A stretch of 42,384 bases of DNA from a virus. Shown here piece by piece: positions 1 through 42,277 of this stretch. Where the stretch lies: the IMG/VR virus record IMGVR_UViG_3300038318_000271, positions 1 to 42,384 of that record; one strand, written 5' to 3'. Within the stretch, counting starts at the first letter, position 1. Each line of letters opens with the position of its first letter. The position numbers and the translations under genes were made by a program. The notes under the pieces are model-generated. The model saw only the letters and a list, made by a program, of their open reading frames with translations, was not told the DNA's origin and made no database searches.

Positions 1-161
1 GAGGTATGGCTCGGTATCGCTGCGTTCCATGCCTGAGAGTGGCCGCCATAGCATAAAAAATTACTGTACTTGGAGTCTCCATACTCCATCAGACCATAGA
101 GACAATTAGTGCTGTAGTCTCTCAAAAGAGGGTCATCAGGCGGGTCTAGCAGGACCAGGGC
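1..161. repeat. Terminal direct repeat, read as the assembly overlap of a circular genome (identical to 42224..42384)
   Basis: Read by eye: bases 1-161 recur exactly at 42224-42384. The repeat cuts through the 5' end of the integrase ORF, so 1-54 duplicate the integrase N-terminal codons. Confidence 0.9.
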
Positions 162-274
162 GACCCGCTTGCCCGCCCACGATGCCTGCACCCACACCCG
201 GGCGCTTGACCCGGACGCACGCGCGGGGGCCCGAGTCCCGGCTATCGCATCAGAACTTCAAGTAAGAATCCCCC

Positions 275-290
275 CACGCCTATAAAGCGA
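275..290 (+). promoter_or_regulatory. TATA-box-like element upstream of the CRISPR-repeat-like cluster
   Basis: cctataaagcg (tataaa at 281-286) lies about 40 nt upstream of the first repeat-like element and is the only AT-rich box in an otherwise GC-rich spacer. Confidence 0.3.
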
Positions 291-323
291 CACTTTTATC
301 TGGTCGCCCGGCCACCTCTTCAT

Positions 324-354
324 GTCGCACCCCCGCGGGCGCGTGGATTGAAAT
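324..354 (+). CRISPR. Solitary type I-C-like CRISPR repeat unit (no adjacent cognate repeat)
   Basis: GTCGCACCCCCGCGGGCGCGTGGATTGAAAT shares the GTCGCAC...GCGTGGATTGAAAT ends of canonical I-C repeats (recalled from memory). The internal stem GCACCC/GGGCGC has one A-C mismatch. Confidence 0.55.
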
Positions 355-374
355 CATACTCTATTGCCTCAGGA

Positions 375-462
375 CAATTCCCCGGCCTCCGGGGATGAAC
401 CGACATTGTACAACGAAAACGTTGTAAGGTGCGGTTGTTCCCCTCTCTGAGGGGATCCCTCG
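375..462 (+). CRISPR. Two type I-E-like 28-nt hairpin repeats flanking one 32-nt spacer (mini-array or repeat decoy)
   Basis: 375-402 CAATTCCCCGGCCTCCGGGGATGAACCG and 435-462 TTGTTCCCCTCTCTGAGGGGATCCCTCG. The stems show compensatory changes, and the gap 403-434 is exactly 32 nt. Confidence 0.5.
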
Positions 463-514
463 ATTTTAGTACTCGTCCTCCCTACCCACAACTAGTTTCG
501 TCAAGGTTAACCGG

Positions 515-559
515 CAGTTATATATACTTGTATATCCAATAGATATATTATAAGAGGTG
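515..559 (+). promoter_or_regulatory. AT-rich promoter region plus RBS for the plus-strand operon
   Basis: ttatatatacttgtatatccaatagatatattataa contains multiple TATA-like boxes. aggtga lies 9 nt before the ATG at 569. Confidence 0.45.
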
Positions 560-568
560 AACAAAAAC

Positions 569-2588: not shown

Positions 2589-3767
2589 TTACCATGCGCC
2601 GGTCTCCGCGAACACTTTGTACGCAGGGATATCGGCTTTCCGGGCGGATTTGACCTCCATCTTTGTTATCGTGACTGGATTGTTGCGCCCATCACCACCA
2701 TAAGTCGCTTTTATGACGATGGTGTCTCCCGCTTTACCCCCGCCAGTTGTATCAAATGTTTTATATAAATCTTGATATGCATTCATACTCCCCGTTCCAA
2801 TTTGCACCCCGTTCCGCTCTACAACAAACTCGATTCCGATCGTGTAATTAGATGATGTCTTAGTAATCCCAATTCGGAGATTCGAGTCAAATTCAGTCGA
2901 ATAATCTGCTGGGATTGTAAACGACACAAGCGTTTTCGATTCCGTGGAATTGATGACAATGTTGGGGGTAAATGTTTTTCGCACAACGTCTCCTGGGACG
3001 TCAACGAACCCCGTCCGGGCACCGATGTTCCCGGTCTGGTTCTGGAGCGCCCCGATGTTCACGATATCCTGCCCCTGCCAGTTTTTCGGGCCGTCGATAT
3101 TAATATCCGAGATCCCAAATCCCCCGATCTTTGCCGCGAGTTCTGAGTCCACATATCCCTTCCGCGCCGCGTCCGTCGCTGCGCTCGGCACGGGGAGCTC
3201 CGTCAGCGCCTGCCCTTGCATGTTCACCGGGGCGACCACTTCCAACTGTGAGGAGGGCACATAGGCCGGGCACGCCACGCCGCAGAGGGACGCATCCCCC
3301 CGCTCGTCAGTGATCTTCGCGGGTAGGATCAAGGTAGCCCCTGCATCCACCCGGACCTGCGCGAGCGAGAGTTCCCAGGTCTCCGCCGTCCGGGTCAGGG
3401 CCGGCGCGGCGGGCTCCGGGGCAGCGGTCCCGGGCTTCACGACGATATCGATCGTCCGGCCGGGAGAGGCGTTCAGTCGCACGACTACCCGATCGATCCG
3501 GGGGTAGGTCGCGTGGGCCGTCGGCACCGCCAGTGTCAGCGCCGCATCGTTCTCGCAGAACCGGCCCTGCACCATCGCGGTCCCGGTCCCGACCAGGACG
3601 GTCATCGCCGGCGGGTCCGTCACCGTGACGGCCATCTCGTTCCCGTCCTCGTGGACGATCCCGTCCCGGATCTGCTTAGCCATCATCCTGCACAGGAGCG
3701 CCGCGGAATACACCCGGTCGGGGTTCTGCGGATCGCTCACGTCGAAAATGCCAGTGTTCAAGGTCAT
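2589..3767 (-). CDS. Tail fibre / receptor-binding protein (distal)
   Basis: Last gene of the tail operon, ATGA-coupled to the upstream gene. The N-terminal domain is typical of siphovirus fibre/baseplate proteins. The C-terminal ~150 aa are encoded by visibly lower-G+C DNA. Confidence 0.6.
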   Translation of the reverse strand: MTLNTGIFDVSDPQNPDRVYSAALLCRMMAKQIRDGIVHEDGNEMAVTVTDPPAMTVLVGTGTAMVQGRFCENDAALTLAVPTAHATYPRIDRVVVRLNASPGRTIDIVVKPGTAAPEPAAPALTRTAETWELSLAQVRVDAGATLILPAKITDERGDASLCGVACPAYVPSSQLEVVAPVNMQGQALTELPVPSAATDAARKGYVDSELAAKIGGFGISDINIDGPKNWQGQDIVNIGALQNQTGNIGARTGFVDVPGDVVRKTFTPNIVINSTESKTLVSFTIPADYSTEFDSNLRIGITKTSSNYTIGIEFVVERNGVQIGTGSMNAYQDLYKTFDTTGGGKAGDTIVIKATYGGDGRNNPVTITKMEVKSARKADIPAYKVFAETGAW

Positions 3768-5529: not shown

Positions 5530-6164
5530 ATCGGATACACCTCCGCGAACGTCACCGCGACGCCTCCGGAGACGTCCGGCACTGCATACGACCTCCCTGC
5601 GAGGTAGCCGCCGGCAGCGGCGATCGCCGCCAACCGGTCCGCGGCGACCAGCGGATCTCGCGTGGCCGCCAGGGTAGCCGCGGCCCCTGCAACCGCGCCC
5701 GGGCGAGACTGGAGGGTACCTGGGACGGAGAACCGGGACAGCCCGAACCGCCGGGCCCCGGGCATCACGTATGACGGAGCGGCGGCCAGGTATGCCTGTG
5801 CGTCCAGCAAGACCTCCAGGGGGGCCTCTACTGCGACGGTCCTGGGTGCCGCTGCAAACGAACGTGTGGCGTCCAGAGATCCCCCTCCACATTCGACAGC
5901 AACCCCACGAGATTGCAATGTACCCGGCATGCCATAGCGAGACGGGCCAAACCGCCGCATCCCAGGAATGAGATACGACGGAGCGGCGGCACGGTACGCC
6001 GATGCGTCAACGGCCCCCGAGCCGGGGGCCTCGACCTCAGCATGCCGGCTTGCGGCAACAAACGACCGGGTGGCGTCAACAGTAGCACTCTCGCCTGCAA
6101 CCTCGACGGCGCGAGACTGCCGGGTGCCGGGGGTGGCAAACCCCGCGAGGGTGTACCGCCGCAT
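5526..6164 (-). CDS. Tail/baseplate protein made of three ~68-aa tandem repeats
   Basis: The units (M/A)RR(Y/F)...PGT(R/L)QSR...ATRSF.AA...AY.AAAPSY..PG occur three times. Coupled at both ends. Confidence 0.6.
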   Translation of the reverse strand: MRRYTLAGFATPGTRQSRAVEVAGESATVDATRSFVAASRHAEVEAPGSGAVDASAYRAAAPSYLIPGMRRFGPSRYGMPGTLQSRGVAVECGGGSLDATRSFAAAPRTVAVEAPLEVLLDAQAYLAAAPSYVMPGARRFGLSRFSVPGTLQSRPGAVAGAAATLAATRDPLVAADRLAAIAAAGGYLAGRSYAVPDVSGGVAVTFAEVYPI

Positions 6165-6167
6165 GGC

Positions 6168-6461
6168 TTACACCCCTGCTGCCATCGCCCATCCGAGGAT
6201 CTCGCTTTCTGCCGAAGCCAGGTAGGCTCTCCCGGCGTCCGTGAGGACCTGCCGGGATCCCTGCCGTTCCAGGTACGCCGGTGACGGCAGCGCCCACCAG
6301 ACCACTTTCTCCCGGTATTCATACTCGGGGCGCGTGCCCATCTCGTCCTCGATCTCAACCTGCCGGATATCCCAGCGGCAAAGGATCCTGACGGATCCGT
6401 TCTTGACTACGTCGATACCGATCGCCGTCGGCTCGACGGTGCTTCTAACCAGTTTGGACAT
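6168..6461 (-). CDS. Hypothetical protein (tail module)
   Basis: 97-aa ORF. Its 5' end overlaps the RT 3' end by 55 nt. Confidence 0.5.
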   Translation of the reverse strand: MSKLVRSTVEPTAIGIDVVKNGSVRILCRWDIRQVEIEDEMGTRPEYEYREKVVWWALPSPAYLERQGSRQVLTDAGRAYLASAESEILGWAMAAGV

Positions 6462-7498
6462 TTGATACCCTTCATTTCTACAGCATAGTCAACAGCGGTA
6501 CGGATCGCGGGGTTCTCGTAGAGATACGTCCGCGCAAAGTTGTAACAGTCACAATGTTTCAGCCACCCATGATACGCTCCTAACGAGCCCAGGATCTCGT
6601 CTGGGTTCATTGTCTGGTAGTTCTGCTCAATCTCGCGAACCCGCTTCTTGAGCCGCCGAGCGGAAGATTTTCTGAGGATCGTGTGCGTCCTAAACGAACG
6701 GTACCCGAGGAAGTCTACTCCGCATCGGTCGACCGGAAAGATCGATGTTTTCGGGTTCAACTTGAGCCCGAGCGTGTCGAAGTACTCCTCGATCCGGGGG
6801 AGGAGGTCCTGCAACCACCCCTTATCGCGATGCAGGATCACGCCATCGTCACAGTACCGAATGTAGTATCGCGCCCGAATTTTCTCCTTTAGCCAATGAT
6901 CAAACGGCGTCAGGTACAAGTTGCTGAAGTACTGGCTCAAGTAATTCCCGATCGGGACCCCGGCGTTCGGGGTGCTGTAGATCACGTTTCGGAGGATGCC
7001 GAGTACTCCCGGATCCTTTACGGTCCGTTGCACGATCTCGAATAACTTGTCCGGCCGAATTGATGGATAGAACTTCGATATGTCAAATTTCAGGCAGTAC
7101 CGGGTCTGGTCGGCATTCTTCAGGAACCGGTGGAGCCGATACGAGCCGGCGTGCAGCCCCTTCCCCGGGATCGCAGAGAACAGGCCGTGAATGAACAGCC
7201 GGTCCCAGATCCGCCGCATCACCTGCATGATCGCATGGTGCACGACCCTATCGGGGAGATACGGGAGTTTGAAGATCACCCGCTGCTTCGGTTCGTAGAC
7301 AATTTTCGTCGTGTAAGATGACGTCGTGAACGTCCCGCTGATGAGGGCCTCCTGGAGGTCTAAGAGGTACGGGTCCGGGTCGGCATCAACCATCCGAACA
7401 GCCTCGTAGTGCCCCTTCCCCTTACGGGCGTTCAGGTGCGCCAGGCGGAGGTTCTCTATCGAGACAAGCGTCGAGAAGAGGTTGCCCTGGCGTTTCAT
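6407..7498 (-). CDS. Diversity-generating retroelement reverse transcriptase
   Basis: RT motifs include the DGR-specific PIGNYLSQYFSNLYL (I/LGxxxSQ) and the catalytic YCDD. Lies immediately 3' of the TR. Confidence 0.93.
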   Translation of the reverse strand: MKRQGNLFSTLVSIENLRLAHLNARKGKGHYEAVRMVDADPDPYLLDLQEALISGTFTTSSYTTKIVYEPKQRVIFKLPYLPDRVVHHAIMQVMRRIWDRLFIHGLFSAIPGKGLHAGSYRLHRFLKNADQTRYCLKFDISKFYPSIRPDKLFEIVQRTVKDPGVLGILRNVIYSTPNAGVPIGNYLSQYFSNLYLTPFDHWLKEKIRARYYIRYCDDGVILHRDKGWLQDLLPRIEEYFDTLGLKLNPKTSIFPVDRCGVDFLGYRSFRTHTILRKSSARRLKKRVREIEQNYQTMNPDEILGSLGAYHGWLKHCDCYNFARTYLYENPAIRTAVDYAVEMKGIKCPNWLEAPSSRRRSVST

Positions 7499-7643
7499 GC
7501 CGACCCCCGCAGCCCTGCCGACAGAGGAGAGCGTTCCGCCGCTCTGCAGGTACTAACACCCCTCTGCGGACCGGTTGTGTTTTTGACCCCAGGATGTCCG
7601 GGATTCGGGTCTGTGCGCTGTTCAGGGCCGCCCAGAGGGTAAG

Positions 7644-7762
7644 GTCTGAGCTCGACGTGGGTGCAATTGTTCCGATTGGAATTCGTCGGACTGTTATTCG
7701 CATTCCGGTAGCCGGGTCCTGCATTCAGCGCATTGTTCCAATTGCCCCCTGCATGCAGGATA
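7644..7762 (-). repeat. DGR template repeat (TR)
   Basis: 115-119 nt aligned to the VR. On the coding strand it is rich in AAC/AAT codons (GGNWNNALNAGPGYRNANNSPTNSNRNNC). It sits 145 nt upstream of the RT start. Confidence 0.93.
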
Positions 7763-7822
7763 CCCGGGGAGCCCCCACGTTTACGCGCACGAACCAATCT
7801 CATTGTACGTTCTTCTCCTCCT

Positions 7823-8044
7823 TCAAGTTAACGTGAAGTAGCGGTTGATTTTCTTGATCGTTGCGAGGAACGGTAGGTGTTCCTGGTATCGCTCCAACTG
7901 CTCGGTAAGGACCTGAGATCCCGTAAAGATCACATGTTTCTCGTCATCTATCTCAAATTGGATGGTGGTGTACAGTCCGTCTTCCTTGAACTGGCTTTTC
8001 TGGCCGGCTCTGAATGCAGTGATCAGGATCTCCTTGTTGAGCAC
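7823..8044 (-). CDS. DGR accessory-position ORF (73 aa, not Avd-like)
   Basis: Sits between the target gene and TR, where avd normally lies. Low G+C. Short and apparently beta-rich rather than a ~120-aa basic helical bundle. Confidence 0.55.
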   Translation of the reverse strand: MLNKEILITAFRAGQKSQFKEDGLYTTIQFEIDDEKHVIFTGSQVLTEQLERYQEHLPFLATIKKINRYFTLT

Positions 8045-8105
8045 ATCCTCAACTCCCCACTTTTTACCGTCAAGAGCAGGTTTCTCATTTGAGAACTCTG
8101 AAAAT

Positions 8106-9662
8106 TTAGGATGCGTGGGGCAATCCCTCCTCTAATTGGCGGAGCTCGACGCGGGCGCAACTGCCCCGAGAGGAACTCGTCGGACCGTTATACGCATCCC
8201 GGTAGCCGGGCCCCGCAACCAGCGCACCGTACCAACCGCCCCCCGCACGCAGGATATTTCCGTTCGCCGTAACGGCGTACAACTGATCTGTGAGATACGT
8301 GTCCGAACTTCCGCTTGTCGCGGACGGTATGAACGCAAGCCCCGCAAGATCGTCGTGGAGCAATCCTGAGATATACCCGGTTGTCGTCGCCATCCCAGTG
8401 CCTGCCTCGTAGGACCCGTCGGCCAGCGTGCCTGCCAGAGTGCCGAGACCGTCCCTGCGGATCAGGCGGAAAGACCCATCAAGGTCGACGTTTGTCCCGA
8501 TGATGAATTTCCAGGTGTTCCCGTAAGGGTTTTCGATCCCTCGCCAGCAGACCGGGGTCTGCCCGTTGACTTCATCCCCAGTGCCGGTGCCGTTCTCGGC
8601 GAGCCTGGAGTCGATGTTGTCTGCCCCGGTCAGTTTCCCGGCGAAGTTCTCGCCGGTCGGCAGATCGACGATCCCCTTGCCGAGTGCGGTCTGGATGTCG
8701 AACGTACCGTACTCAATATACATCAGGAGTTGGTCCGCACAGTAGCCCCAGAACGATTCGCAGCCGGCGTTGCCGGGCGAGATTCGGGAGGCGTAGAGTT
8801 CGGCATCGTCGATGTGGAATCTGCCACTGTTAGGCAGATCCGAATAGGCTACCCCCCCGGTGATAGGGATTTTTCCGGAGGCGGAACCGAGCCGGAACTC
8901 CCCGTTGTAGATGAGCCCGTACGACTCGTAGGCGCCGCCGTACATGTATGGGGCCGGGACCCCGCCGCCCCGCATGTAGAAGTACGGGTGCAGCGAGAAC
9001 CCTGCAGCCGGCCGGGCAGAGACCCACCGGCGGGCAAGGTCAGTGCCGTCGTCGAACTCGTGTTTGGCGTAATAGGCTGGTTTCCGGACGAGCACGTCGC
9101 CGGCGGTACCGTCGAGGGTCAGGCCGTCACCCCGGGCGTTTGCACCGAACGAGATCTGTGCGGTCGCCCGGTCCCTGACGCAGCGCCACCGGCCGCCGAA
9201 GACCAGATGCCGGTCGAAGAAGTCGGGCGAGATCGCTTCGATCTCGTGCCCGAGCGCGTCGATCCGGGTCAGGGTCGGTGACGAGGACATGGTATCCCAT
9301 TCGATCCCGATGATCGGGGAGTTTTTCGCCGAGATGACGTCGATCTGCGCCTGAGCACTCACGGCCCGCTGCTGCAACGAATTCATATCGTACGCTGCAA
9401 TCCCGCGGAACACATACGTCCCGGCGGGCCAGGTCGCGGTGGGAGTGCCGGGGAGTTTGACGACTCCGATCAGGTTGTTCCCGTCCTTCGCGGCGTACCG
9501 AAACTCCCCGGAGACGGCTCCCGAGAGACAGGCGATGTTTGGGGCGTCGGGGGTTTTCGCCGCGTCGACAACAGTCATCGTGGCAGCACCAGTCGTGTAT
9601 GGTGCTGCAAGAGTGGTGTAGGGGGACCCTACCTGCGCAGGATAGAGGTCAGGTAATCCCAT
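8106..9662 (-). CDS. DGR target protein: tail fibre/receptor-binding protein with a C-terminal C-type-lectin/FGE-like variable domain
   Basis: 518 aa. Contains CWRGIENPYGNTWKF and a C-terminal GGGWYGALVAGPGYRDAYNGPTSSSRGSCARVEL that carries the VR. Located just after Dit. Confidence 0.9.
   Translation of the reverse strand: MGLPDLYPAQVGSPYTTLAAPYTTGAATMTVVDAAKTPDAPNIACLSGAVSGEFRYAAKDGNNLIGVVKLPGTPTATWPAGTYVFRGIAAYDMNSLQQRAVSAQAQIDVISAKNSPIIGIEWDTMSSSPTLTRIDALGHEIEAISPDFFDRHLVFGGRWRCVRDRATAQISFGANARGDGLTLDGTAGDVLVRKPAYYAKHEFDDGTDLARRWVSARPAAGFSLHPYFYMRGGGVPAPYMYGGAYESYGLIYNGEFRLGSASGKIPITGGVAYSDLPNSGRFHIDDAELYASRISPGNAGCESFWGYCADQLLMYIEYGTFDIQTALGKGIVDLPTGENFAGKLTGADNIDSRLAENGTGTGDEVNGQTPVCWRGIENPYGNTWKFIIGTNVDLDGSFRLIRRDGLGTLAGTLADGSYEAGTGMATTTGYISGLLHDDLAGLAFIPSATSGSSDTYLTDQLYAVTANGNILRAGGGWYGALVAGPGYRDAYNGPTSSSRGSCARVELRQLEEGLPHAS
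8138..8256 (-). repeat. DGR variable repeat (VR)
   Basis: Hand alignment to the TR gives 22 mismatches in 115 nt, every one at a TR adenine on the coding strand (T on the plus strand). No indels. Confidence 0.93.
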
Positions 9663-10010
9663 CTACGCCACCGCCGGGAGGGTGATAGTCAGCACCACGG
9701 CGCCGGCATCGGCCGCCAGGACCAGGAGGAGGGGTTCGACACTCTCTGCAGCAGAGAGTGGGTCTCCCCCGCTCACGGCCTCGTAGAGCCGGACCTGCTC
9801 GATCTGGCAGGGCAGGGTGACGTCCGCCCCCGTAACCGGTAGCGAGAACGTCATCGGCGTGACGCCGGCAGCCGACGTGCGGTGCGATGCCAGAGCATAC
9901 CTGGCACAGGCGGCCGATCCGTCGCCCGTCTGAAGTTCAGCATACCATTCGATCACGGGCGTGCGCTCGCGGAGCGCCTCATACCCGTCTGCGTTGAGAT
10001 TGACTGTCAT
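9663..10010 (-). CDS. Hypothetical tail/baseplate protein
   Basis: 115-aa ORF packed between Dit and the DGR target. Confidence 0.6.
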   Translation of the reverse strand: MTVNLNADGYEALRERTPVIEWYAELQTGDGSAACARYALASHRTSAAGVTPMTFSLPVTGADVTLPCQIEQVRLYEAVSGGDPLSAAESVEPLLLVLAADAGAVVLTITLPAVA

Positions 10011-18320: not shown

Positions 18321-19403
18321 TCAGAACCCTCCAAATGATTTGATTCTCTCTGCGAACGCCTTCTCCGCCTCTTCGAGCGTCTTCTCGGTCGGAGCGCCCG
18401 CGCCCATACCGACGATCTTACCGGCGCCGAGTTTCGCGAGATACTCGGCCTCAGTCTTGACAGCCGCCTCGATCTTCGCGGTGTAGGTCGCCTCATCGAG
18501 TTTGCCGTCCTTGACGACAGGGCTCTTGCCGAGCGACTCGACGATCCGCGCCTTGGTGAGGTCGGGGATCTTGGCGTCCTTGACCTTTGCCTCGACGAAC
18601 GTCTTTGCCTCGACGAGAAGCTGCGCCTCCTTCAGGCGGGCGTTCTCGGTCTGTGCTGCTTCGAGGGCTGTCTCGGTCTCTTTGAGTTTCTTCTCCTGCT
18701 GTGCCTGCGCCTCCTTCATGGCGGCGCTGTTCTCGATCTCCGTCCGGAGCGCCTCGATGATCTCGGGGTGGTCCTTGTGGAGAGATTCGAGCGTGAGTTT
18801 CGGTGTAGGGGTAGGTTCTCCCATGCTGGATTCTCCTGCTGCTTTCTGTTCGTCTGTCGGTACTGGAGGGCCGGCAGCCCGGAACGCTTCCGCGATGGCG
18901 CCGCCGCGGCCGGGCACGGTCACAAAATCGACCGAGCGGGCGGCGGCAATCCGGGTGATCACATCACCTTTCTTGCCCTCCGCCTCGCCCGGTTTCGATT
19001 CTCCCCATACGTAGTGGGAGAGCCCGATGTGCGGCCCCATCTCCGCGACGTGGTCGCGGTAGGCGCTGAACACCTTCGCCCGCGAGTAGAGCCCTGGTCC
19101 TTTCGACCCCTGTTCATCCCACCGGGCGTCTTCGGTCAGGACGCCCGCGAGGTCGCGGAGGTCGCGTTCGGGGCGCTCTTTCTCGTCGCTCTTGCTCGGG
19201 TGGTTCCAATACATCTGGAGCCCGGCCGCGTAGACCCGGGCGTTAGCCGCCTGCTGGAGCACCTCGCGGGAGTAGTAGCCCGACGAGCCCCACCCGGCGT
19301 CGATGATCTTGACAGGGATCGTGCCGTTACCGTCAGTCTTTGCCTCAATCAGCGGGACGATGCCCGCTATGAACTCTGTCACACTGTCCTGCCCTCCACT
19401 CAT
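18321..19403 (-). CDS. Scaffolding protein, possibly fused to a prohead protease domain
   Basis: Start refined to the ATG at 19403 (ATGA overlap). The C-terminal half is a K/E/A-rich coiled coil. The N-terminal domain reads GWGSSGYYSREVL...WNHPS. Confidence 0.65.
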   Translation of the reverse strand: MSGGQDSVTEFIAGIVPLIEAKTDGNGTIPVKIIDAGWGSSGYYSREVLQQAANARVYAAGLQMYWNHPSKSDEKERPERDLRDLAGVLTEDARWDEQGSKGPGLYSRAKVFSAYRDHVAEMGPHIGLSHYVWGESKPGEAEGKKGDVITRIAAARSVDFVTVPGRGGAIAEAFRAAGPPVPTDEQKAAGESSMGEPTPTPKLTLESLHKDHPEIIEALRTEIENSAAMKEAQAQQEKKLKETETALEAAQTENARLKEAQLLVEAKTFVEAKVKDAKIPDLTKARIVESLGKSPVVKDGKLDEATYTAKIEAAVKTEAEYLAKLGAGKIVGMGAGAPTEKTLEEAEKAFAERIKSFGGF

Positions 19404-22297: not shown

Positions 22298-22370
22298 AAC
22301 CGCCGGAGGGACTCGAACCCCCTGCCCCCCGGTTACAGATCCGGCGCGCTGCCGGTAGCGCCTCGGCGGC
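22298..22370 (-). tRNA. tRNA-like gene with a non-canonical anticodon arm
   Basis: Hand fold: acceptor GCCGCCG/CGGCGGU, D arm GCGC-UACCGGCA-GCGC, T arm GGGGG-UUCGAGU-CCCUC. The anticodon arm has only a 4-bp stem CCGG/CCGG with an 8-nt loop AUCUGUAA. Followed by TTTTT. It fills a 95-nt intergenic gap. Confidence 0.5.
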
Positions 22371-25332: not shown

Positions 25333-25870
25333 AGAGCCTCCGTGCGATTCTGTCCCGGTATTCGTCGGGGATCTCTTCATCGAGGACCACGAGGATCTGC
25401 CGGAACTCGGGCGACTGGAGGAGGTTCACGTTCACGTTCACTGTCGGCTTTCCGTCGCGCAGTTCCCCGGTGATCTTCGCGAGGAACTCCAGGGTCCGCC
25501 GGACCTCGCTGAGCGCGAGACAGGCTTCCCGGGTGCCTTCCTTCTCGGCGTTGTCGAGGATCGCGATCGCCCGGGTTTTGAGCGTGGTCACTTGCTGGAG
25601 GAGGGTCTCGGCTTCGGCAACGGTCTTTTCCTCTTGTTCTTCCACGATCTTTTTAAGCGAGGCGGCCCCCTTTATCTCTTTCTTTTGCGCCGCTTTTGCG
25701 ATATGCTCAGTGATATGACCGTTTCTCTTATGTCGTCCAGCAGCCTCACGTGACACGCCGTACTGCCTCGCGATGGCACGATATGACACACCGGCGACGA
25801 GGGCTGTGTCAATCTCGATCCTCTGCGGGTGGTTGCAGATCGTGCACTGGGCCCCGGGAGTCCTATCCAT
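25316..25870 (-). CDS. terS: Terminase small subunit-like DNA-binding protein (N-terminal CxxC plus HTH)
   Basis: CTICNHPQRIEIDTALVAGVSYRAIARQYGVSREA forms an HTH, followed by a coiled-coil region. Lies directly upstream of terL. Confidence 0.65.
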   Translation of the reverse strand: MDRTPGAQCTICNHPQRIEIDTALVAGVSYRAIARQYGVSREAAGRHKRNGHITEHIAKAAQKKEIKGAASLKKIVEEQEEKTVAEAETLLQQVTTLKTRAIAILDNAEKEGTREACLALSEVRRTLEFLAKITGELRDGKPTVNVNVNLLQSPEFRQILVVLDEEIPDEYRDRIARRLYALAP

Positions 25871-41077: not shown

Positions 41078-42277
41078 TCATTCGTCAACGACTGTCCGAT
41101 CTTGGTTTAGTTTCCCCTCTGCCGCCTGCATCAGAGCATCCGCAACTTCCGGGTACTCCCTCAGCATTGCTGCAAGTAACATCTCGACAGTATACTTCGC
41201 GTCACGAGTGAACGGGCAGCCACATACATAACACGCGGGACTATTTGGCGCGTTGACGGTGTCACACTGCGGGCACTGGATCGGTTTAAGCTCTTCTTGA
41301 GTATCTTCGCGCTGACGAATCCCTGCGTGCTCCAGCACCGCTTTATCGATGGCCGCATCCGATACGTGCGCGTAGGTCGCGAGCATCGGGGATTTCAGGT
41401 TCCCCCAGGACTGCAGTTTAATCACCGACTCGCTGAGGCCCGTCTCGACCCAATGCGTGATCCGGCTATGTCGGAACAAGTAGGGGTGTATCTCCTTCTC
41501 GACCCCTGCCCGCTGCGCGGCCCGGTCGATGATCTTCCGCATCGCGCCCCGGGTGATCCGGGCAGGCGATCCCCGCGAGCGCAGGAACACCGGGGCGTCG
41601 CCAGTCGCGTCACCGGGATAGTCTGCCTGCCATGCCGCGAGGTATTGGGCCGACATGAGTAGGCGGATGTGGCGGCGCTTGCCTGTCTTGCCGTCGGTGA
41701 TCAGCTTCGCGCCGTAGCGGTCAAACTCGATCTGCCGCCAGTCAAGATCCGTCACCTCGATAGGCCGGAGAGCGCCCTCGTAGAGCACCGCGAGCATGGC
41801 CCGGTCCCGGGAGGTGCGGCACCCCTTGATGACCCGCTGCACCTCGTCGATGGTGAGCATCTGCGAGGGGGTCTTGGTGACCCATTCGGCGGCCGGAGCC
41901 TTCACGCGGCCGATCTTGGAGATATCAATATCGATGATGCCGCGCTCGTCGAGCCAGCCGATAAAAGTCTTGAGGTGCTGCAGGTACTTCCTCTCTGTGT
42001 TCGGGCGGAGGTGCAGCCGCCGGATCGTCGAGACTGCCTTCATAATATCGGATGTTGTGCACCGCTCGAACTCTGGCATGTGCCCCCGGAGCAGGGCGAT
42101 ATATGAGGCAGAGGTCCGGACAGTCTCATCAGAGGTGCCGCGCTGCGCCTGCCGCTCGTAGAGGTGGTCGAGGATGAGGTCGGCGTCTGATTTGGTGATA
42201 TGCCCATCGGCTATTTGCTTCGTGAGGTATGGCTCGGTATCGCTGCGTTCCATGCCTGAGAGTGGCCGCCATAGCAT
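41078..42277 (-). CDS. int: Tyrosine recombinase/integrase with C-terminal zinc ribbon extension
   Basis: Catalytic-domain motifs RPIEVTDL, HPYLFRHSRITHW (HxxR) and LATYAHV (Tyr). Followed by CPQCDTVNAPNSPACYVCGC. Confidence 0.9.
   Translation of the reverse strand: MLWRPLSGMERSDTEPYLTKQIADGHITKSDADLILDHLYERQAQRGTSDETVRTSASYIALLRGHMPEFERCTTSDIMKAVSTIRRLHLRPNTERKYLQHLKTFIGWLDERGIIDIDISKIGRVKAPAAEWVTKTPSQMLTIDEVQRVIKGCRTSRDRAMLAVLYEGALRPIEVTDLDWRQIEFDRYGAKLITDGKTGKRRHIRLLMSAQYLAAWQADYPGDATGDAPVFLRSRGSPARITRGAMRKIIDRAAQRAGVEKEIHPYLFRHSRITHWVETGLSESVIKLQSWGNLKSPMLATYAHVSDAAIDKAVLEHAGIRQREDTQEELKPIQCPQCDTVNAPNSPACYVCGCPFTRDAKYTVEMLLAAMLREYPEVADALMQAAEGKLNQDRTVVDE

Follow-up and report, generated by a model that had tools for sequence, protein, structure and literature searches.

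Cracrs are viral mimics of the cellular CreR and CreA elements, and are recognized by a stretch of at least 9 nucleotides (nt) proximal to the protospacer-adjacent motif (PAM) that is shared with a cellular CreR or CreA (bioRxiv 10.1101/2024.10.29.618823). The mechanisms of both CreR and the viral Cracrs have been shown experimentally in bacteria (bioRxiv 10.1101/2024.10.29.618823; bioRxiv 10.1101/2023.03.10.532045); the hosts treated in the Cracr preprint belong only to the Pseudomonadota, Bacillota, and Actinomycetota, the word 'archaea' is absent from it, and co-encoded Cracrs are reported always to target the same type (bioRxiv 10.1101/2024.10.29.618823). In a CreR mini-CRISPR, the 5′ handle is intact in the first pseudo-repeat (ψR1) and the hairpin is intact in the second (ψR2), and a CreR for type I-C was predicted, not tested, in the same work (bioRxiv 10.1101/2023.03.10.532045). 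The present analysis concerns IMG/VR virus record IMGVR_UViG_3300038318_000271, of which positions 1 to 42,384 make up the stretch analysed (42,384 nt, hereafter the window), and within it a type I-C-like CRISPR repeat at 324–354 that is followed by type I-E-like sequences up to position 462. The region of about 310–468 is probably one short non-coding RNA (ncRNA) of a temperate Methanoculleus virus, built as a two-unit array of CreR mimics (Cracrs), and by means of this RNA the virus probably makes the CRISPR machinery of its host switch itself off.

The element resembles the Cracrs in being viral, in lying outside any CRISPR-cas locus of what is a tailed-virus genome, in combining a host-like pseudo-repeat with a short guide, and in placing several units in one array-like transcription unit. 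It differs from those of the preprint in that I-C and I-E units are fused, in that the host is a methanogenic archaeon, and in that the I-C unit has no second I-C repeat and is instead bounded by an I-E hairpin. By sequence, the I-C unit is assigned to the Cracrs, and not to the repeat-only RNA anti-CRISPRs (Racrs), because it shares 12 PAM-proximal nt with a chromosomal element against a published threshold of 9. A virus of archaea as the carrier and a mixed I-C/I-E array are both absent from the Cracr preprint (bioRxiv 10.1101/2024.10.29.618823), which agrees with the claim of an earlier note on this DNA that two subtypes in one arrangement had not been described before; similarly, CreR-like elements of type I-C in Methanoculleus and of type I-E in methanogens appear to be undescribed.

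The Type I-C Pseudo-Repeat and Its Guide

The repeat GTCGCACCCCCGCGGGCGCGTGGATTGAAAT occupies positions 324–354 of the + strand (31 nt) and is present in a single copy in the window when up to 3 mismatches are allowed (0 copies expected from 100 shuffles). It belongs to the I-C repeat family and fits the pattern GTCGCNCCCC-N(2-6)-GGGNGCGTGGATTGAAA, with GTCGC at its beginning, GCGTGGATTGAAA[C/T] at its end, and an internal GC-rich hairpin that folds; a scan of genome_contigs for this pattern returned at least 120 genuine arrays, and the closest repeat among the matches listed is 2 edits off. The stem consists of 7 base pairs at 326–332/337–343 (C326–G343 to C332–G337) with a single mismatch, A329·C340, in place of which an A–T pair is found in the sister lineage L202, and the loop of the window copy is 1 nt short. 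Directly 3′ of the stem, TGGATTGAAAT at 344–354 is the stretch that a CRISPR RNA (crRNA) of type I-C keeps as its 5′ handle. Of the I-C repeat GTCGCACCCTTCACGGGTGCGTGGATTGAAAT of Methanoculleus sp. ZNE14_Bin75, the first 9 nt and 17/18 of the last 18 nt are present in the viral copy, and 18/18 of the latter in the L202 copy. Exact 31-mer scans of genome_contigs and viral_contigs gave no match to 324–354, and no Rfam family was significant at the gathering or E-value threshold, the best being CRISPR-DR58 with 18 bits against a cutoff of 38.

The pseudo-repeat is followed by a guide segment (ψS) of 20 nt at 355–374, the first 12 nt of which (355–366) form the seed CATACTCTATTG, and the guide segment runs up to the first I-E-like repeat at 375–402; the second I-E-like repeat lies at 434–462. 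Upstream, a TATA-like box (TATAAA, 281–286, + strand) is found 38 nt 5′ of the repeat and is the putative archaeal promoter of the ncRNA; downstream, the T-run ATTTTAG at 463–469 (+ strand) is its likely archaeal terminator, which would yield an RNA of about 150 nt. For region 310–470, a fold with four hairpins is predicted (I-C pseudo-repeat, I-E ψR1, an intra-spacer hairpin, and ψR2), with z = −2.64 against shuffled sequences. The locus is not a bona fide CRISPR array, as the I-C-like unit is a single copy and the two I-E-like units are unlike each other, and no cas gene was found within 10 kb of the repeat or among the scanned open reading frames (ORFs) of the window. What the earlier note had described is thereby confirmed as an observation: an I-C-like repeat with both conserved ends, without a partner repeat, with one A–C mismatch in its stem, 20 nt away from the first I-E-like repeat, and located behind a TATA-like box in an integrase-proximal non-coding region.

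Between the integrase attachment (att) core and the TATA-like box, a GC-rich non-coding block at 160–270 is found that is absent from the sister viruses. Through an inverted repeat (215–234/325–344; 80% complementarity), this block can pair with the I-C pseudo-repeat.

A Module Shared by Viruses and Mobile Elements

Relatives of the locus were found via the neighbouring protein, and in these the homology starts at the repeat and runs on through the next 20 nt, also where all of the upstream sequence is unrelated. Scans with GGATTGAAATCATACTCTATTG and a longer variant of it returned 16 loci, corresponding to about 10 distinct viral or mobile-element contexts after removal of duplicates. Common to all of these contexts is a block in which a covarying hairpin is followed by GTGGATTGAAAT and then by CATACTCTATTG, set between unrelated flanks; the core of the block can also be written as covarying hairpin-GCGTGGATTGAAAT-CATACTCTATTG. 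The GC hairpin is variable yet always able to pair, GCGT(GT)GGATTGAAAT comes next, and the lineages diverge after nt 12 of the seed. At the level of sequence comparison, the informative features are the divergence on either side of the seed and the identity of the seed with a host element. Every related module also has an AT-rich TATA-like box of its own, about 25–35 nt 5′ of the first pseudo-repeat, in upstream DNA that is otherwise unrelated, and sister viruses carry the module without an integrase beside it. Within the window, a search that allowed up to 3 mismatches gave no self-target for the guide 355–374, and no protospacer for either the I-C or the I-E guide was found in IMG/VR, where the matches are the modules themselves.

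Two further loci that touch on the module may be mentioned. In the distant relative L203 (IMGVR_UViG_3300006482_000006, positions 1–200), the module lies directly 3′ of two tRNA-like genes, comprises the I-C unit only, and ends in a hairpin followed by TTTTT. In L215 (LFRM01168380.1), an array of a third CRISPR type, with 57 copies of the 30-nt repeat GTTTGAATTGGACTAAGATAGGATTGAAAC, has a spacer at 1293–1328 (GGGCGTGGATTGAAATCATACTCTATTGCCGTACCC) that derives from the pseudo-repeat-handle-seed module, and another match of this array, 34/36, is to positions 25574–25609 of the window. Since the L215 array contains a spacer from the module, some host has acquired immunity against the anti-CRISPR locus.

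The Chromosomal Counterpart and the cas5c Target

The same block is found at the ends of genuine I-C arrays (loci L208, L211, L212, L217, and L260), which are accompanied by Cas1 and Cas2 and contain 80–112 repeats. Within about 100 nt of the last regular repeat, there is first a TATA-like box and then a degenerate repeat (GTCACGCTCCCTGGGGCGTGTGGATTGAAAT); the seed CATACTCTATTG follows as part of a segment of about 36 nt that resembles a spacer, and a second, more degenerate repeat completes the series. At all of these loci, the viral and the chromosomal seeds are identical at 12/12 PAM-proximal nt. In L260, which comes from Methanoculleus because its flanking serA is 85–92% identical to named Methanoculleus proteins, the candidate I-C CreR spans 19234–19330, after the array trailer and beside a tRNA gene.

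The seed is partially complementary to the 5′ region of cas5c beside a PAM. On the minus strand of L260, TTC|CATACACTATTA at 5823–5812 overlaps the GTG start codon of cas5c (5817) and its GGAGGT ribosome-binding site, the latter being matched also by positions 19–24 of the host guide. Between the seed and the cas5c start, mismatches fall solely at positions 6 and 12, and TTC followed by CATACACTATTA is present in L260, L261, and L263; similarly, in ZNE14_Bin75 (L222), the first 16 positions of the window's own guide are paired except for 6 and 12 (14/16), here beside CTC. In complexes with a Cas7 backbone (type I), every sixth base of the guide is flipped out and unpaired, which corresponds to positions 6 and 12. 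A TTC with a 10-nt seed match is expected about 6e-4 times in the 21-kb L260 locus, and across all fetched loci the seed pattern gave otherwise 3 random hits, none of them with a PAM. The L260 element, together with an I-E element in locus L390 described below, resembles CreR/CreA (bioRxiv 10.1101/2023.03.10.532045) in being a degenerate mini-CRISPR with a seed match, beside a canonical PAM, to the start or promoter region of an effector operon; it differs in that the I-C element comes after the array and not upstream of the cas genes, and the window copy is viral and not cellular.

In Methanoculleus Yes49-05 (L223, 5835–5849), a genome rich in spacers against this virus family, position 8 of the seed is mismatched at the cas5c target (CATACCCAATTG), by which the host may evade the viral guide.

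The Type I-E Unit

The motif TTCCCC-N7-GGGGAT occurs twice in the window against 0.03 expected, and the + strand sequence around the two copies has the build of a CreR-type mini-CRISPR of type I-E (375–462). Its ψR1 (375–402) combines the hairpin CCCCGG-CCT-CCGGGG with an intact 8-nt handle, ATGAACCG (395–402); the guide segment (403–433) is 31 nt long, begins with the seed ACATTGTACAAC, and contains an internal 7-bp hairpin (TACAACG/CGTTGTA); and ψR2 (434–462) keeps the 5′ part and the hairpin (GTTGTTCCCCTCTCTGAGGGGAT) with a degenerate 3′ end, reading GTTGTTCCCC...GGGGAT and then CCCTCG. The hairpin of ψR1 may have a second role, namely that of 3′ hairpin to the I-C guide. The I-E-like repeats of the earlier note are not a pair of independent decoys; together they make up a ψR1-spacer-ψR2 mini-CRISPR.

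Shared with the Methanoculleus repeat GAGTTCCCCACGCACGTGGGGATGAACCG are TTCCCC and GGGGATGAACCG of ψR1, and Methanoculleus I-E repeats have exactly the same handle, ATGAACCG. Stem variants of ψR1 in which pairing is kept are found in L202, L214, and L218; the ACATTGTACAACGAA that follows ψR1 is kept in five lineages, L214 differing at position 6 only; and the ψR2 hairpin covaries in comparison with L214 (CCCCGTGCTGTGGGG). No cellular counterpart with the viral I-E seed was found among the loci searched. The I-E seed also has matches in L191 (within a coding gene) and in two Parasutterella loci, but no more than chance would give, and these matches were set aside.

The methanogen I-E loci L390 and L391, the former from a biogas-reactor methanogen, have a cellular mini-CRISPR upstream of cas3 that is built alike and has hairpins of 15 nt. 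In L390 it occupies 6773–6861 and its target lies at 9746–9762, with the same arrangement in L391; the seed matches ATG|TAGTGGAATTAGGA in the spacer between cas3 and cse1, with mismatches solely at positions 6 and 12. Although this seed differs from the viral I-E seed, the element is a candidate archaeal I-E CreR.

CRISPR Systems of the Host Genus

The I-C arrays of the hosts were reached through protein searches. For type I-E, a pattern scan with at least 120 matches yielded the arrays in Methanoculleus as well as the first operon, and more I-E loci were obtained via proteins. Cas1 from the metagenomic array locus L212 has relatives at 87–88% in M. frigidifontis, Methanoculleus ZNE14_Bin75, and Yes49-05. 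A full I-C operon (cas3-cas5-csd1-cas7-cas4-cas1-cas2) with the signature protein Csd1 and at least 91 repeats is present in M. frigidifontis; a full I-C operon including Csd1 is likewise present in L260; and in ZNE14_Bin75 a close Cas1c adjoins the I-C repeat GTCGCACCCTTCACGGGTGCGTGGATTGAAAT, close variants of which occur elsewhere. The host lineage thereby has an I-C cas operon and a closely similar repeat. Host I-C repeats share GTCGCACCC...GGGTGCGTGGATTGAAAT with the viral copy, and host I-E repeats share TTCCCC...GGGGATGAACCG. For type I-E, Methanoculleus UBA208 has a full operon (cas3-cse1-cse2-cas7-cas5-cas6e) behind repeats GAGTTCCCCACGCACGTGGGGATGAACCG, and I-E arrays are found in Methanoculleus MH98A, which also has Cas1c, and in UBA430; no cas genes were found in the flanks of the arrays of MH98A and UBA430, and a literature search on I-E in Methanoculleus returned no paper. 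In M. frigidifontis, an orphan and decaying I-E array of four repeats (L220, about 3130–3350, minus strand) lies directly 5′ of the I-C cas3 and adjoins an RNase_T-family exonuclease gene. The type I-U system of M. bourgensis, with a 36-nt repeat, was considered as another candidate for the system that is mimicked.

Both systems are directed against this virus family. Against the sister virus L213, I-C spacers of Yes49-05 have matches of 34/34, 32/37, and 31/34 positions with TTC beside each, the TTC PAM being derived independently from these three protospacers; against the window, the I-C spacers of Yes49-05 match at 29–32 of 34–37 positions, and I-E spacers match these viruses at 26–27/32. 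A check named in the earlier note, whether candidate hosts encode both I-C and I-E systems with matching repeats, has a positive outcome at the level of the genus.

The Virus, Its Integration Site, and Its Neighbouring Genes

The last nucleotides of the window repeat the first 161 nt, and owing to this terminal repeat the window is a genome of about 42.2 kb that is circular (or terminally redundant). Among its genes are those for a terminase, tail proteins, a D5-type primase-helicase, and a tyrosine integrase, and a portion of the window has a match of 86.6% to Methanoculleus virus Blf4. The tyrosine integrase gene (41078–42255, minus strand; PF00589, E = 1.7e-18; start codon according to the gene call in L122) is the divergent neighbour of the repeat region across the circular junction, and because the genome is circular it adjoins that region. 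On the other side, an ORF of 175 aa (569–1096, + strand) has its own AT-rich promoter at about 520–560; no Pfam or PHROG match was found for it or for the other ORFs downstream of the repeat, which therefore could not be connected with any acr or aca gene. The protein of ORF 569–1096 is present on five public contigs, and a different gene takes its place in other lineages.

Two of the related contigs show the two states of the virus: L122 is its episomal form, and in L121 it is integrated beside the F430-biosynthesis (cfb) and fasciclin genes of a methanogen. The closest genome is Methanoculleus sp. ZNE14_Bin75, in which the unoccupied site is visible; the empty attB lies in L126 (13838–13846). 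The att core TCCATCAG (8 bp, window 85–92) marks the switch from host to virus in L121 (9517–9524), and it overlaps the start codon of a conserved Methanoculleus gene of 87 aa and the stop codon of the preceding gene, not a tRNA gene. Across 76 Methanomicrobiales loci, host homology stops at L121 position 9524 (about window 92), and nothing of window 93–568 was found in the uninfected loci among them. Because host identity ends at about window 92 and 93–568 is absent from uninfected loci, the repeat is neither attP nor host DNA; such an origin, which the earlier note had named as one that could overturn its proposal, did not materialize.

Elsewhere in the window, a diversity-generating retroelement is found at 6407–9662 on the minus strand. 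It comprises a reverse transcriptase (6407–7498; PF00078; PHROG 1423, E = 3e-112), a small ORF (7495–7803), a template-like repeat (7648–7706), and a variable copy (8142–8200) at the 3′ end of the tail-protein gene 8106–9662; nearly all differences between the copies are a T in the template-like copy (coding-strand A) against another base in the variable copy. The only tRNA-like gene lies at 22298–22370 on the minus strand (Rfam tRNA, 35.7 bits); ARAGORN was unable to assign it, its anticodon has 4 bases (ctgt), and it may be frameshift-suppressor-like or degenerate.

Proposed Mode of Action and Competing Explanations

In the proposed mechanism, the first unit, made up of the repeat 324–354 and the 20-nt guide 355–374, would be bound by the I-C Cas proteins of the host through its pseudo-repeat hairpin and handle. 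Through a seed of 12–16 nt, the resulting complex of viral RNA and Cascade would pair with the chromosomal region that contains the start codon and ribosome-binding site of cas5c, the first Cascade gene, beside a TTC or CTC PAM. Since complementarity does not extend past the seed region, the complex should bind without recruitment of Cas3 or cleavage, and it would act as a roadblock and tighten the autorepression by the host of cas5c-cas8c-cas7. The viral RNA would also be a competitor of antiviral crRNAs for the Cas proteins. The second unit (375–462), a ψR1-ψS-ψR2 mini-CRISPR of type I-E, is presumed to act likewise on the I-E system. We infer the transcription, processing, Cascade loading, repression, and viral benefit in this scheme. 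A bolder extension, which is tentative and rather doubtful, is that one viral RNA of about 150 nt reprograms two type I effector complexes of the methanogen at once, as a hybrid array processed across subtypes: Cas5c would set the 5′ end of the I-C guide, and the I-E hairpin would be both the 3′ hairpin of the I-C guide and the Cas6e site that frees the I-E guide.

Several observations weigh against the Cracr interpretation. At 31 nt and with a stem that is not fully paired, the pseudo-repeat departs from real I-C repeats, which are 32–33 nt long (99/100 of the distinct repeats sampled are 32–34 nt), and recognition by Cas5c is not assured because of this length, the A·C mismatch, and the lack of a second I-C pseudo-repeat. 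Because the 12-nt seed was part of the patterns used to retrieve the modules, its invariance is in part a product of the search. The chromosomal counterpart is known from one Methanoculleus lineage and lies after the array, whereas published CreRs usually precede the cas genes; the triplet on the PAM side is CTC in the closest reference genome, as opposed to TTC at all three confirmed protospacers; and no target of the viral I-E guide was found among the loci searched. Moreover, the host systems are known at genus level, the I-C locus of the host of the provirus (L121 sample) being outside the set recovered.

The closest competitor is a pure decoy, as proposed in the earlier note, in which the pseudo-repeats merely sequester Cas5c/Cas7 and Cas6e/Cas7 in aberrant complexes and the downstream sequence is no guide. 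For this reading speak the validated Racrs of types I-C and I-E and a likeness to them (Camara-Wilpert et al. 2023, PMC10651486): the window element is a viral repeat mimic just 3′ of its own promoter, with a solitary intergenic I-C-like repeat on a mobile element, far from cas genes, and its repeats match the host subtypes; competition for Cas proteins belongs to the Cracr model too. However, Racrs are bare repeats acting by sequestration, whereas the window element has a conserved guide seed with a chromosomal target. A decoy needs none of what follows the handle here, namely 12 nt identical to a chromosomal crRNA-like seed (12/12) that match cas5c beside a PAM with mismatches at 6 and 12, and the pattern of a conserved seed followed by divergence is repeated after the I-E ψR1. 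A pure decoy is accordingly judged unlikely; of the earlier proposal, promoter-proximal mimicry of CRISPR repeats by a virus stands, and the solitary, Racr-type repeat unit does not, so that its interpretation is supported in part. It is less probable still that the locus is a non-functional souvenir, in which the trailer end of an I-C array (its last degenerate repeat and flank) and a piece of an I-E array were captured by recombination and are now drifting. The same block does occur at the ends of chromosomal arrays, and the mismatch and shortened loop of the window copy would suit such decay; yet the block is kept in about 10 viral or mobile backgrounds with unrelated flanks, each with a TATA-like box and with stems that stay paired, the fold is more stable than that of shuffled sequences, and only the hairpin, handle, and seed are conserved.

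The two remaining explanations are less probable again. Sulfolobales viruses reportedly carry mini-CRISPR arrays of one or two spacers that make use of host Cas proteins, and in that work, by Medvedeva et al. in 2019, the repeats of the arrays are said to be nearly perfect and the spacers to be complete and directed against related viruses. A virus-borne mini-CRISPR of this kind, serving superinfection exclusion against competing viruses, would account for the repeat-spacer-repeat form of the I-E part and for its 31-nt spacer, a normal I-E length; the window repeats, however, are degenerate and mutually different, it is the first 12–15 nt and not the whole spacer that are conserved, and the spacer-like segments match only the modules themselves in IMG/VR and nothing elsewhere in the window, which makes this reading highly improbable. 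Least probable of all is that the region belongs to attP, is an integrase arm site, or provides terminator or attenuator hairpins for the flanking genes, as its integrase-proximal, non-coding position and its several GC-rich hairpins before a T-run might suggest: the crossover core is about 230 nt away, the region is missing from the uninfected Methanomicrobiales loci, the module persists in sister viruses without an adjoining integrase, and plain terminators would not conserve CRISPR handles.

Implications

If the Cracr interpretation is confirmed, the viral hijacking of CRISPR self-regulation would extend from bacteria to archaea, and to methanogens that are relevant to biogas, with one compact RNA gene aimed at two CRISPR subtypes of a single host genus. 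The hybrid array, if true, would contradict the reported confinement of each Cracr array to one subtype. For the hosts, the findings point to CreR-like autoregulators of both I-C and I-E systems in Methanomicrobiales, in both of which the seed/target pairs miss positions 6 and 12 only, and they provide a triplet of guide, target, and PAM for CRISPR interference in methanogens. The replication of Methanoculleus virus Blf4 in spite of matching host spacers is a noted puzzle (PMC8540584), and the viral element may help to explain how Methanoculleus viruses replicate despite such spacers.

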